A stretch of 64,000 nucleotides of DNA from an uncultured Tenacibaculum sp. (GCA_947498055.1 CANMJA010000019.1:4524-68523); one strand, 5' to 3'; shown: positions 14,138 through 20,100, counted from the first letter of the stretch. Numbers and translations: made by a program. Notes: generated from the letters alone by a model not told the origin.

Positions 14138-17100
14138 TTAATCAGTTAATGTAATTAATACTAGTTCTTCTTGATCTTCACCTTTGGTTACTTTATATTC
14201 TGATACTTTAAACTTTTGACCACTGATAAATAATACTTCACTTTCTGTAACCGATGAAAAAGTAGGTCCATGAAGAGAAATATCTTCAATATCTAATCCT
14301 TTTTTACTCTCTATAGTAAATAATACTTTTACATTACCTATATCTTCATTTTTATCTAAAAACACTTCTGCTACAAAACGTTCTTTACTTGTAGATATGT
14401 ACCCTAATTCTTCTATTTCTGTTTTATTTTCGTATGCTTTTTCATATTTTTTTAATGCTGATTTTTTCGTTGAAATCCCCCTGTAGGTTGTTTTTAAATA
14501 CTTTGGAAATTTTTCTAAACTCTTTCTTAATACATTGTCAAATATTTTTAATTTTTTATCCGTAATACTCCTTTCTCTTAAAGCTTTATTAAAATTTTCT
14601 ACGGTATATAATGAACTGGTATAATGATATACAGTTGTTAATTCCTCTAAACTTATATTTGGGTATTTTTTTATTAAAAGTGTATATTTTTCTTTGACCT
14701 TGTTTCTAGAATCTATAACAAGATTTATATTTAAAAATCTTAAGAAATTTACATCGGTACGGTTGACGCTTTTTACTTCATGCATTAATTTCCAATTATC
14801 TAATAACTGCGGATTTTTAAATACTACTTCTAAAAATTGTTTTGATGATTTTTTGCAATCATTTATGAAATCATCTTGAACTTGCTTATCAAAAGATTCT
14901 ACTTTTCCAATAAAAGTATTCATTGTCAAATCTGTATCTTCTTGTAAATAAGAAAATAACTTTCGAAGTTCTCTCCTTTTTGTTTCGTTTGATTTTGTAA
15001 AAATTACTTTTACCTCGTAGTCATTATCCTTTATAAAAACTGGAGCCTGAGTAAATCCATTCCTTCTAGCTATTTTCCCAGAAGGCGTCATAAAAGCTGC
15101 CATAGCTCTTCCTTTATCTTTATATTTAAAATATTCTAGTAAGTTGGTAGAAATATTATCTTCATATGTATCTGCTCGCACCCAATGACATTGAATTTCA
15201 ACTGGTTTATGTTTCTTAAATATTTCTTTAAATATTTTTGTTGTTACTTTTTGTTTTTGAAGAACACTTGGTAATATAATATCGAACGAAAGTGTATTTA
15301 TTTCAGATATATTAAAGTTTCCTATTTTTAATTCCTCTCCATTTAAATAAACTAACTGAAATTCTGATTCTGATACTTTAATATCACTCCATAGTCTATT
15401 CTCCTTTCCAGCTTCTGTTGCTTTCCATTTAGTATATCCTCCTATACTTTTTAATACCGCATCAATGTCTTTTAGATTATCTACTTCAATCTTAAAAGGT
15501 TCCTTTTTATTAATATCATAATATGCTCTCCATGAATCAATAAGTCTTGGATTATTCTCCATTTCTAGAACAACTTCTTTCTCTACTTTAGAAAAATTCT
15601 CTATAAAGTCTCTAAAAACCTCCTCCGAAAAATTCAGTTCATTGACCTTATTTTCGATTAGACTACTTTGTTTCTTGAATATTTTCTCTATTTCTTTTTT
15701 TCTATATGAATTTGGCTGTACAGGATCCTTTGTTAATATTCTGTTTGAAACCCAATTATCAATTAAATTTACATCCTCTAAAAACTTTTCTAAGTTGCTT
15801 GTTTTTCCTTTAAATTCTTCAATAAACTCCTTGGCTACATTTACTTTTAAAGATTCTATTTTTTGTATAATTCCATTAACTTTTCTAAAAAGTTCATGTG
15901 CTTCAACTCCTTCAAATAATTTTCTTACTTCTGTTCTTATTTCATTCTCTTTCTTAGTAAAAATTACTTCCACTCTATTTTTTTTATCTACTAAAAAAAT
16001 AGGCTCCCCTGTAAACTCATTTTTCGTAGCTAATTTTCCAGCCGGAGTCATTAAAGCAGCATCTCTTCTATTCATCCCTTGATCTAAATACTTTAAATAC
16101 TCAAGTAAATTTGTAGACATTCCTTCTTCATACAAATCGTCTTCTAGCCAAACTGATTTTACTTCTTTAGGAGTAAGTTTTCTAACTACTTTACTATATA
16201 AATCACTTACAATTCTTTGTTTTTGAAGATACTTAGGAAGTTCTAAATTAAGGCCCAAAATACCAAAAGAAGTAACTCCAAAACTACCTATATCTACAGT
16301 ATTTCCATTTAACAAAACAACATCTGCATCATTTTTATTTAGAGTTATCTTATCCCATAACCTATTTTTTTCTCCTGCTTCAGTAAGTTTCCATTTTTTA
16401 TAACCTCCTATTCCATTTAATACTTCATTTACCTTTTCTAGCTCTTCTATTTTTATTTCAAAAGGTTCTTCTCTATTAATATTATAATACGCTTTCCATG
16501 CAGCTACTAAACTTGGGTTTTTCTCTATTGTATGTATAATTTTGTTTTTTCCTACTGCATAGTTTGTAAATGCTTCGATTTCTTTTTTTGAAAAATCTAA
16601 TTCTTCGATTATTCTCTTTATTTCATCTGCATTTTCTTTAAAAACCTCATCAATTTTCGTTTTATTACTCTCTTCCTTACCCAAACTAATAGATTCTCCT
16701 CTACCTTTTTCTGAACTTGGTGGAATTTCTTCTAAATCACTACGTGCTCCTCTATGGTATTTTTTAAAAGGTGTATTATGTTTTACTATACCATTAGTGT
16801 ATATTTTTACAACTCCATCACTAGCATAAAATGGTCTTTCTATAATTTTTGACAATGCCAATGCAGCTTCATTTGTATTACAAGATAACAATCGTACTTT
16901 TTTTGTTTCTGGTATTGAATTGATTATTTCCGCTACATTTTCTATTGGAATTATCTCTTGTTTTCCTTCAATTATTGATACAAAATTACCTTCACCATAA
17001 TGTATAATTACATCTATATAATCGTCTTTTGTATTAAAATTGAATCCTACAAAATTGATGTTTTTAGGAAATGCTGTTGCATTCTCTTTAAATACTTTTC

Positions 17101-20100
17101 TAGTATTAACCCATGCATTCACTAATGCTGGTTTTTCTGCAAATGCTAAAAGTTTAGCCGTATTTTCTTTAAACGTATTTTTAAATATTTTTTGTAAATC
17201 TGAAGGAACTAATACTTTTAAAGATTCTAGAATATTTTCTTTCGATTCTATTAAATTAGAAAAATCTCTTTTTATTGATTCATTAACACTCTCTAAAAGT
17301 CTAATCTTGGTTTCTGTGCTCATCCAAGGAGCTTCTGGCATCCATTCTTTATTATAATAACCTGTTCTTCTTGCTAAGAGTAACGAAAAATAGATTTTTT
17401 CAATTTCATCTTCATCATGCTTAAAGTCATTATAAGTATTATAGTAAACAGGAATATAATTTTCCTTCAGTCTATTTCCCATTGCTTCAACCCTGTGCAT
17501 TCCATCTAGCACCAGCTTTGTGTTATTTGGTAACTCAACTATATCAACAAGGTTAGAATTATCTACAAGAAAACCTTTTTCTTTAATTTTATTTACAACT
17601 TCATCTACTTCATTTGCATTTACTGGATGCATCATGGTGAGTTCAGAAATCTTAACATCTCTAACCTTTTCAGGATATTCAGTCCCTTTTGGATTTGTTA
17701 CTATTTGAACATTTTTATAAATACCTTCATCATTAACAGGTTTTATGAAGAACACATGTACTTTGGTTTTTGTATCGACTTTAAATATTGGTGTACCTGT
17801 ATATCCATTTTGCCTTGCCAATTTTCCTGAAGGAGTAGCAAAAGCCGCTTGTTCTCTAGTTCTTCCGTTTCTCAATTCTGATAAGTACACCTCCAAATTA
17901 GTTGAAACATCACTATGATTAAGATTGGTGTCTCCCCATGTTTCTTCTATTTTTATCGGTTGGTACTTTTTAATTCCTCTCTCAAAAATTTCTGTTGCTA
18001 TTTTTTGTTGTCGAAGGTAGCTTGGAAGGTCTATTGTACTAATAAAAGTTCCTTGTTTCGATAGTGTAAAACCACCTATTTCATCTGTTTTTATTCCATC
18101 TAATAATATTACATAGGCATGATCTTTACTGTCTATTTCTATACTATTCCATAATTGATTTGCCTCTCCTTTCGCTGTTGTCTTCCATTTAACGTAGCCC
18201 CCAATTTTTTTCAAAATTCTTTGGATTTGTTGTAAATCCATCAATGATAAATCAAATCTCTCTTTAGGAGCAGTATCATGTTGAACCTTTATTGGTTCTA
18301 ATAAACTAGGTTTTACTAAAACTTCTTCTAGCATTATTTCATCTAAAGAAGCTATATATTTTATAAATGCAATTCTTTTTTCACTACTAAGTTTTAATGC
18401 CACAATAGCTTCTTGTAATGAATTATTATTTAATATTCTTTCAATTTTTGATTTTATATTTGCATCTCTCCCTAAAATAATTGGTGTTTCTTTTCTTAGT
18501 TTTATATTAGGTGGAATTTCCTCTAAATCACTACGCGCACCTTTATGATATCTTGTGAATGGTGTTACATGTACTACTTCTCCATCTGGATATAATTTTA
18601 CTCTTCCATCGTTCGCATAAAATGGTTTTTCTGTGAGCTTTGATAATTCTATAGCCGCTTGTTCTGTACTACAAGACAGCAGTCTTATTTTTTGATCTGA
18701 TGGCAATGAATTTATTACTTCCGCTAATTTTTCTATAGAAATAACCTTTTCTTCAGTTTCTACTTTAGATAAAAATTTTCCATTTTCATAATGTATAATA
18801 ACATCTATATAATTATCTCCAGTATCAAAATTAAATCCTGTAAAGTCTACGTTTTTTGGAAAAGCATCTGCATTTTTATCCAGTACTCTCTGTATATCTA
18901 ACCAAGCATTTACCAAATTTGGATTCTCCGTAAACTCTTTCAGTTTTACAATATCTCCTTTAAATTCACTTTCAAAAACTGTTTTTAACTTTGTATTAGA
19001 AATCAATCCTTGTAAAGATGCTAGTAATCCTTCTGGAGACTCTGCCAAATCAGGAAACTCTTTTTTCATAAAATCGTCTACCGCTTTAAACACTTCATTC
19101 CTTCTATTTCCTACCCAGGCAATATTAAAAGGCATCCACTCTTCTGTATAATGTCCTGTTCTTTTTCCTACATGTACTGCATAATAAATATTTTCTAAAT
19201 TTCTTATATCTATACCTCCAGATTGCACCGAATTCAAAACTTCTTCATAAGTATTATATGCCACAGGAATATGCGTTTCCTTTAGTCTATGCATAGCTTC
19301 AACCCTATGCATACCATCTATAACCATTTGAGCACCATTTGGTAATTCAATTACCCTAACAGGGTTTCCTCCTATTCTTTCTTCACCTGCTATTTTAAAA
19401 CCATTTTCTTGAATGTCTTTCACAGTTTCTTCTACACCACCTAGTTTTGATTTTCTTGGTACTGGATGTATCGTTGTTAATTTTGCTATTTCAACATCTA
19501 TGTAAGATTCTGTATAATCGCCGACAATACGAACATTCTTGTAGAGCATTTTTGCTGCATCTAAATTTTTAAGTTTCTCTACAGCTTTATTCGCTTTTTC
19601 TAAATTAAAATCGGAAAACGTTTTTAATAATTCTATTTCTTCTTTTACTATTCTTATGTTTGCTTGTAAATCGCTAGATGTTAATTTTTGAAGATGTACT
19701 TCATCTTGTAAAATATCATCTACTAACTTATTTACATTTGTTATTTGATTATTTGTTTCTTTTAATACATCAGGATGTATTATCTCTCCTACTTTACTTT
19801 GAAGGAACTCTTCTTTTACTGTTAATTTTTTAGATAGAGTAGCCAAACTAGCAACTCCTGTAACCAAACTTAATTGATTCATATAAGTAGCTAAACTTGG
19901 ATCTACTTCTCTAAATGCAATACCTGCCATACTAGACACAGAACTCATTTTATCTGTATAGTACAAGAATTTTCCAAAAGTATTAAGAGCTGCTGTTCCT
20001 CCTGTTGGTAAAAAGGCTAATAAATCGACAGATGTTTGTATAATATCTGACTTTGTTTGCAATGCTTCTGTTTTACTAGCATAATGCAATGTAAACGCAG

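Follow-up and report, generated by a model that had tools for sequence, protein, structure and literature searches.

Toxins of the GNAT superfamily such as TacT, AtaT, ItaT and KacT belong to type II toxin–antitoxin systems and acetylate aminoacyl-tRNA, and to our knowledge GNAT toxins have so far been known as intracellular toxin–antitoxin modules. No GNAT or acetyltransferase warhead appears in the 2012 census of polymorphic toxins (PMC3482391) or in the paper on TANFOR toxins (Jana, Salomon and Bosis 2020, PMC7073777), the MuF-toxin paper makes no mention of a GNAT or acetyltransferase toxin, and a targeted literature search found no described GNAT warhead of a polymorphic toxin. Here we describe a gene from an uncultured Tenacibaculum sp., located in a DNA stretch of 64,000 nucleotides (GCA_947498055.1 CANMJA010000019.1:4524-68523; hereafter the window), which encodes a putatively secreted multi-module protein, probably of the TANFOR type, with three copies of an unnamed domain. 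These segments are most likely paralogues from a strongly divergent GNAT branch that had no name before and that serves as a toxin domain in polymorphic toxins of Bacteroidota. The domain family, the family of open reading frames (ORFs) that accompanies it and its internal, triplicated use as cargo are new; the TANFOR toxin class and the GNAT superfamily were already known.

TANFOR toxins are the class that the host protein resembles in its putative Sec signal, its weakly TANFOR-like N-terminus and its VIP2-like ADP-ribosyltransferase (ART) at the C-terminus. Genes for proteins with SprB repeats, with the C-terminal sorting domain of the type IX secretion system (T9SS) and with Fn3 and PKD domains are enriched around TANFOR genes (PMC7073777), and all of them are found next to the host gene. 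The same paper reads the VIP2-type members as anti-eukaryotic toxins without an immunity gene. It differs from the present analysis in that only N- and C-terminal domains were catalogued, and neither an internal array of cargoes nor the GNAT-like family was described; its toxin types also do not list the Allomuricauda and Flagellimonas proteins that end in a GNAT-like domain and are followed by an immunity-like ORF. With MARTX toxins (Vibrio RtxA) and other large toxins bearing a cysteine protease domain (CPD), the host protein shares a giant chain with several unrelated enzymatic cargoes and putative releasing CPD-like His/Cys modules, but it has a TANFOR-like delivery head and a putative Sec signal, and the Pfam scan of the protein gave no match to RTX-type repeats or to components of a type I secretion system. 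As for TacT, AtaT, ItaT and KacT, the common feature would be a GNAT fold that arrests growth and is countered by a small cognate protein; the difference is that those toxins are free-standing and cytoplasmic with a DNA-binding antitoxin encoded upstream, whereas here the domain is the tip or cargo of an exported protein and the partner ORF lies downstream.

ORF calling over the window showed that a single ORF of 3486 aa encloses the whole region in question (Table 1). Within it, a domain of about 175 aa occurs three times, with a pairwise identity of 39–45% and 53 invariant columns; internal BLASTP comparisons give E-values from 1e-37 to 1e-59, which puts the repeat far beyond chance. An earlier note on this DNA had reported a domain of about 155 aa in three diverged copies, and the repeat is thus borne out with somewhat longer units. 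All the motifs which that note had listed (IGGY.KWK, IG.F, LP..L..Q, W, STNL..Y, AA..TP.GK.A..N and V.V.F.K) are present and aligned, and the span it gave, 14995-18215, lies in the right region, although it omits the first 50 nt or so of copy 1 and the last 10 nt or so of copy 3. A six-frame hidden Markov model (HMM) search of the genome recovered the same three sites independently, together with a fourth copy in a paralogous gene of 2826 aa on another contig; copies 2 and 3 used as a single query against a database of genome contigs found no relative. That the family had no name, as previously stated, agrees with the Pfam and NCBIfam scans of the entire protein and the excised copies, which returned nothing relevant for the three copies (Pfam at E ≤ 10). 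The profile of the three copies likewise gave only noise against PDB sequences.

The earlier note had also proposed an HMM of the three copies as a check, and this search, carried out against 1.84 billion representative proteins, found relatives mostly at toxin C-termini: 140 proteins at E ≤ 1e-3, 45 of them at E ≤ 1e-10. Iteration delimited 156 domain instances, in 125 of which the domain ends no more than 25 aa from the C-terminus of the protein; the window copies are internal instead, ending 281–1197 aa short of the host C-terminus. The N-terminal partners across the family include RHS repeats whose core end is the usual DPxG..PYQF..DxDGLE, PT-HINT, eCIS_core (DUF4157), simple signal peptides and TANFOR heads. 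Several members carry two copies, P0085 carries three, and the paralogous 2826-aa TANFOR toxin of the same genome has one good and one diverged copy. The largest number, six, was observed in the metagenomic protein P0036 (5274 aa), where the diverged copies stand in a row and most are without the motif A glycine. The nearest relative, WP_143569742.1 from Tenacibaculum agarivorans, is 46% identical over the domain and bears the NCBI name 'ParB N-terminal domain-containing protein'; another relative comes from Aquimarina. Among the 401 sampled genomes of the class only seven carry the domain, and such a patchy spread is the distribution expected of polymorphic toxins. The family is small, with about 140 representatives, but it is well defined. 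We also considered the domain as an embedded immunity or adaptor element and rejected this, since it is terminal in 80% of instances and has a downstream partner of its own.

That partner became visible when the loci of one subclade were retrieved with a tight subclade alignment; among the first six downstream ORFs compared, almost all had been mutually dissimilar. The subclade comprised ten named Bacteroidota loci (Breznakibacter, Capnocytophaga, Flagellimonas, Allomuricauda, Brumimicrobium, Flavobacterium, Saprospiraceae and others), two of them, from Allomuricauda and Flagellimonas, with TANFOR-type N-termini. At nine of the ten, an ORF of 123–293 aa begins at −4 to +7 nt relative to the end of the toxin ORF, and eight of these nine ORFs are mutually homologous across genera, with pairwise E-values from 1e-4 down to 1e-34 and of 1e-97 for one near-identical pair. 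The same ORF family also matches the ORFs that stand behind one member of the RHS type and one small secreted protein (loci L017 and L019), and other subclades have different small ORFs at the same downstream position. The candidate ORFs have no significant match in Pfam or PDB, and their sub-cut-off matches look like chance. A domain that closes diverse delivery proteins and is inherited jointly with a small gene just downstream bears the genomic signature of a toxin/immunity pair, and this is strong contextual evidence that the downstream ORFs are candidate immunity genes. Both observations, the position at toxin C-termini and the conserved ORF family, favour the effector function suggested previously.

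The GNAT assignment was based on four lines of evidence. Across the wider family the consensus at the relevant site is (I/V)P..LQ.QGIG/A, i.e., the canonical motif A, Q/R-x-x-G-x-G/A, which follows a beta-strand and opens a helix; the segment LP..LRQQKIA of copy 1, which had been taken for motif A without its Gly, falls exactly there. An hhalign comparison of 138 domain instances with a profile of 18 canonical Acetyltransf_1 proteins from the same genome gave Prob 91.2% and P = 9.8e-7, with 61 columns in register over beta3–beta4–motif A–alpha3–beta5, and a smaller alignment of 30 sequences gave Prob 73% and P = 3e-5; the controls, a reversed GNAT profile and the unrelated CPD-like module of the host protein (the X module, see below), gave P = 0.89 and P = 0.46, respectively. 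The C-terminal half of the domain is not aligned to canonical GNATs by this method. Weak Pfam matches (E ≤ 0.5) of 112 full-length members fall most often on Acetyltransf_1 (19), Acetyltransf_CG (16), Acetyltransf_10 (15) and Acetyltransf_7 (13), the best E-value being 9e-5, and no member reaches the gathering score. In PDB sequences, the top matches of the family profile are GNATs: 6wqc/6wqb (VipF-like) with E = 0.0045, then 7wx5, RimI (5isv) and an AAC. Multi-copy GNAT arrangements, as in VipF, recur in the window family, but VipF is a substrate of a type IV secretion system with two adjacent canonical GNAT domains, whereas the window copies are separated by other modules and only the motif A region shows similarity.

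The fourth line is structural. AlphaFold2, given the 30-sequence alignment, modelled copy 2 with a pLDDT of 94.1 and a pTM of 0.82, and the top 50 PDB matches of this model in Foldseek are all GNAT folds, although weak ones (E 0.011–0.17, query TM-score (TMq) 0.29–0.39). They include the C-terminal domain of ICL2/Rv1916, PseH, Ard1, AAC(6'), Rv0998, NatD and SpeG, and none of TacT, AtaT, ItaT or KacT; in the viral library (BFVD), the named matches are nearly all acetyltransferases. In the model, three helices come first, then a four-strand meander, alpha3 and beta5, and lastly three more helices and a beta-hairpin, an order unlike the textbook beta1–alpha1–alpha2–beta2–4–alpha3–beta5–alpha4–beta6. 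With the GNAT superfamily (Pfam clan Acetyltrans) the family has in common a beta-sheet core with motif A at the beta4–alpha3 junction; it differs in two extra helices between beta5 and beta6 and in a W / S-x-N / T-P-x-G-K signature that is not a GNAT motif, and the window copies also differ in having no motif A glycine. Overall, the four converging lines (hhalign, Pfam, PDB profile search and Foldseek) support a remote relationship of the family to GNATs, and with it the GNAT-like character that the earlier note had proposed. An unrelated alpha/beta fold that resembles GNATs by chance is, in our view, very improbable.

At motif A, the three window copies read RQQKIA, QKQRIV and QKQKVT and do not conform to Q/R-x-x-G-x-G/A. 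The first Gly of the motif is Gly in 111 of the 135 other members and Lys or Arg in 13 of them, and it is K, R and K in the window copies; at the sixth position, where 107 of the 135 conform with G/A, the copies have A, V and T. Residues other than Gly at this site are also seen in terminal single-domain members with a toxin layout. All three copies keep W108 (96% in the family), S119, N121 (97%), A138, A139, T142 (100%), G145 (99%), K146 and F171, and the sole further departure among highly conserved columns is a Glu in place of G152 (91% conserved) in copy 2. The word 'degenerate', previously applied to the domain, is thus correct for motif A but does not extend to the other near-invariant residues of the family. 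Copies 2 and 3 group as sisters in the tree, with the Gly-bearing copy of T. agarivorans as their next neighbour, and the placement of copy 1 is unresolved. Because of this placement and the family residues that are kept, the three copies are, on the sequence evidence, old and constrained, and their departure from the family is limited to the presumed pyrophosphate loop.

The modules that surround the copies bear on how they may be used (Table 1). Along the chain, the order is ParB-like, adaptor, CPD-like, adaptor and GNAT-like, given twice, followed by adaptor, adaptor and GNAT-like, and then by adaptor and ADP-ribosyltransferase, so that a single chain holds several unrelated kinds of module: two ParB-like, two CPD-like, three GNAT-like and one ART module. 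The first two units form a duplicated cassette of about 600 aa (aa 1685-2290 and aa 2293-2886, 36–47% identical), each consisting of a ParB-like module, an X module and, as its last element, GNAT-like copy 1 or 2; the third unit (aa 2887-3205) has only linker remnants and a GNAT-like domain.

In the X module, the His is conserved and the Cys invariant; the His is followed by Tyr, where Gly is usual. Its model has a pLDDT of 81, and its best Foldseek match is the C-terminal domain of Pseudomonas aeruginosa Tce1 (9qpe_G, prob 0.96, TMq 0.51), followed lower down by SAVED-CHAT, the RtxA CPD (TMq 0.40, prob 0.18) and TcdB, which makes the CPD assignment a weak one; a search against PDB sequences gave no meaningful match. 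Tce1, a type VI secretion system effector, is described by the authors of its structure as a putative cysteine protease whose His and Cys superpose on the dyad of the TcdB and RtxA CPDs (PMC13323088). The module stands directly before a GNAT-like domain in five cases (twice in the host protein P0001 and once each in P0003, P0102 and P0096) and before other toxin tips in P0002 and P0008. A position just before toxin tips is usual for a releasing peptidase, which makes the X module a candidate for this function; it may also be a separate effector, because Tce1, the best structural match, is itself one, and the paralogue of Tce1, Tce2, is toxic to yeast. The helical adaptors of about 45 aa sit directly before X, GNAT-like or ART modules, and their motif is likewise found ahead of the domain in paralogue P0002 and in P0014, a small secreted protein. 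Such an adaptor could mark a junction between modules, serve as a recombination site or act as a cleavage linker in TANFOR toxins.

Table 1. Features of the host gene and its operon in the window (positions counted from the first nucleotide of the window).
Feature	Position	Strand	Residues	Remarks
Host gene P0001, putative secreted multi-module toxin of TANFOR type	14138..24598	-	3486 aa	TIGR02542 match below cut-off; neighbourhood matching published TANFOR ones (PMC7073777)
ParB-like module 1	19019..19546	-	1685-1860	DGMHRVEAM; opens cassette 1; ddrB-ParB E 0.18 (weak), SbnI E 0.023
X module 1, CPD/C80-like His-Cys fold	18464..18901	-	1900-2045	DVIIHY ... RLLSC; immediately upstream of adaptor and copy 1; possible releasing peptidase
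GNAT-like domain copy 1	17732..18265	-	2112-2289	Motif A equivalent LRQQKIA at 17996-18016
ParB-like module 2	17219..17722	-	2293-2460	Opens cassette 2; from cassette self-comparison
X module 2, CPD-like His-Cys module	16673..17110	-	2497-2642	Upstream of copy 2
GNAT-like domain copy 2	15944..16471	-	2710-2885	Motif A equivalent LQKQRIV at 16208-16228; copy modelled
GNAT-like domain copy 3	14984..15505	-	3032-3205	Motif A equivalent LQKQKVT at 15242-15262
R-S-E ADP-ribosyltransferase module, C-terminal	14141..14659	-	3314-3486	YRGIS, ISTS, ESEVLF; Pfam PF03496
Helical adaptor, about 45 aa, seven copies	14792..18925	-		Core N-P-x-L-[VIL]-x-x-W
Adaptor core 1	18902-18925	-	1892
Adaptor core 2	18290-18313	-	2096	Degenerate
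Adaptor core 3	17111-17134	-	2489
Adaptor core 4	16496-16519	-	2694
Adaptor core 5	15752-15775	-	2942
Adaptor core 6	15530-15553	-	3016
Adaptor core 7	14792-14815	-	3262
815-aa partner gene	11685..14132	-		5 nt downstream of toxin; no immunity-sized ORF between
PKD protein	24600-26087	-		Upstream operon partner
SprB-repeat protein with T9SS C-terminal sorting domain	26087-31174	-		Upstream operon partner
Fn3 protein	31178-33259	-		Upstream operon partner

From the repeats, the family, the GNAT homology, the position at toxin tips and the linked downstream ORFs, we propose, with a probability of roughly 55%, that the three copies belong to a new toxin family derived from GNATs, are cargo of a TANFOR multi-effector with a MARTX-like build and act by acyl transfer after release. 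The protein would be exported together with its T9SS-linked partners, the CPD-like His/Cys modules would cut the chain and free the cargo modules, and each GNAT-like module would then move an acyl group from acyl-CoA to a conserved intracellular target in the recipient cell. The activity of the three copies in spite of the missing Gly, like the use of acyl-CoA, the existence of such a target and the release by the CPD-like modules, is what we infer from this arrangement.

Several observations weigh against this proposal. Run alone against the GNAT profile in hhalign, the three window copies reach no more than Prob 5.7% and P = 0.0067, and they have no Pfam match at E ≤ 10. The Foldseek matches are weak, with the best E of 0.011, the TMq range given above and a large rmsd, and the best of them belong to the non-catalytic, acetyl-CoA-sensing domain of Mycobacterium tuberculosis ICL2/Rv1916. 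In the model, helices precede the four-strand meander, unlike the canonical beta1–alpha1–alpha2 order, so that only the core would be demonstrably GNAT-like and the rest appears strongly remodelled. The first motif A Gly is absent in all three copies and the sixth-position G/A in copies 2 and 3. Finally, the host operon has no ORF of immunity size, and an hmmsearch of the six-frame ORFs of the genome (E ≤ 10) found no homologue of the linked immunity-like family.

Some of these points would be explained if the window copies were pseudo-enzymes, that is, GNAT-derived modules that bind a ligand or target, either as acyl-CoA or nucleotide sensors switching on the CPD-like peptidase in the target cell or as scaffolds for host proteins. 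The replaced motif A residues, the regulatory ICL2/Rv1916 domain as the best structural match and the lack of an immunity gene in operon and genome would all fit, as would the two copies that lie directly behind a CPD-like module, an adjacency that recurs in P0003, P0096 and P0102. Tandem GNAT proteins with one dead domain, such as MshD, are well known, and the top PDB sequence match, 6wqc, is VipF-like. However, the other near-invariant residues of the family are kept despite a sequence divergence of roughly 55–60%, Lys or Arg at the Gly position is also found in terminal single-domain members with the toxin-tip layout, copy 3 has no CPD-like neighbour, and a CPD-like module is absent from most family members. 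We consider the pseudo-enzyme reading unlikely.

The distribution of conservation raises another question, namely whether a GNAT-derived fold here performs other chemistry: use of another donor (aminoacyl-tRNA, as in the Fem and L/F-transferases), hydrolysis or binding, with an active site at W...S-x-N...T-P-x-G-K. The most conserved columns, W108, N121, T142 and G145, do lie outside motif A, where Gly reaches 82%, the C-terminal half with its two extra helices is the part that hhalign leaves unaligned, and the TM-scores are low. On the other hand, most members keep the textbook motif at the beta4–alpha3 junction, for which we know of no role other than the binding of the CoA pyrophosphate, and the named structural neighbours are all users or binders of acyl-CoA; a change of chemistry thus seems improbable. 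As to a fold that is GNAT-like by chance, no Foldseek match reaches E ≤ 0.001, TMq stays below 0.4 and the window copies have no direct Pfam or PDB match, but four independent lines with clean controls converge on GNATs and on the same motif A register.

The proposal of acyl-transferring cargo can be extended to a delivered class of acyltransferase toxins with a dedicated immunity family, acting between bacteria as RHS, PT-HINT and TANFOR tips and against eukaryotes as eCIS cargo and as the present multi-effector without immunity gene. Catalysis would then centre on the W / S-x-N / T-P-x-G-K signature and not on the classical GNAT motifs, and the three Gly-less paralogues would have diversified in acyl donors or targets and be freed by CPD-like peptidases from a MARTX-like, T9SS-associated toxin made by a marine flavobacterium. 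We offer this extended version as tentative, and would sooner doubt it than rely on it.

The genome has a low GC content (26–33%) and is Bacteroidota-like, with SusC/D, TonB and T9SS substrates close to the host gene. The N-terminus of the host protein, MKIKKYIHRILIISLLVLVGAIQAQ, was judged by eye to be a signal peptide and resembles the TANFOR-type ORFs of loci L038 and L042; TIGR02542 (TANFOR) matches aa 29-152 with E = 1.2e-5 and 25.3 bits, which is below the 67-bit cut-off. At the C-terminus, PF03496 (ADPrib_exo_Tox) matches with E = 1e-5 and 25.4 bits, against a cut-off of 23.4. A zincin motif, HELGHGAFQLKH, is located at window positions 22061-22096 (aa 835-846), has weak reprolysin-like Pfam matches (E 0.009–0.014) and is kept in the paralogue and in the fragments of loci L036 and L039; this region may be a second processing peptidase, as a candidate.

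The operon runs from the Fn3 protein through the SprB-repeat/T9SS protein, the PKD protein and the toxin to the 815-aa protein, and T. agarivorans has the same order, with a gene for 806 aa in the equivalent downstream position. The 815-aa protein is 72% identical to the protein downstream of the paralogous TANFOR toxin and has no significant match in Pfam or PDB. We observed that a protein of about 810 aa is always encoded behind these multi-effector TANFOR genes: besides the window, at 3907-6381 (-) of locus L005 and at 14262-16682 of locus L044. Its role may be that of a partner dedicated to export or to the outer membrane.

Five TANFOR-head genes were counted in the genome, on contigs C1, C24, C21 (two genes) and C19, which is at the upper end of the reported range per genome. 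The C1 paralogue (2826 aa) has its first 1000 aa or so in common with the host protein and carries different cargo. Another unnamed, toxin-like C-terminal domain (GG.IT.GE..., SGHY.PS) was seen at the tips of relatives: in P0002 at aa ~2640-2826 (L005 6381-14861 (-)), in P0005, in P0006 and in a fragment at 3195-3395 of locus L007, behind which an ORF of 197 aa follows. Locus L007 (G161:C1:2846096-2849491) is a tandem array of orphan cassettes, each an RHS C-terminal fragment with an immunity-like ORF, and one of them bears a GNAT-like tip.

The family comes with candidate immunity proteins to match and with a model of high confidence, which would allow work on toxin and immunity, cofactor and target to start directly. 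The host protein also indicates that TANFOR toxins can be multi-cargo arrays of cassettes joined by a repeated adaptor, and such arrays bear on how Bacteroidota toxins are assembled and released and on whether T9SS-linked toxins act on eukaryotes.

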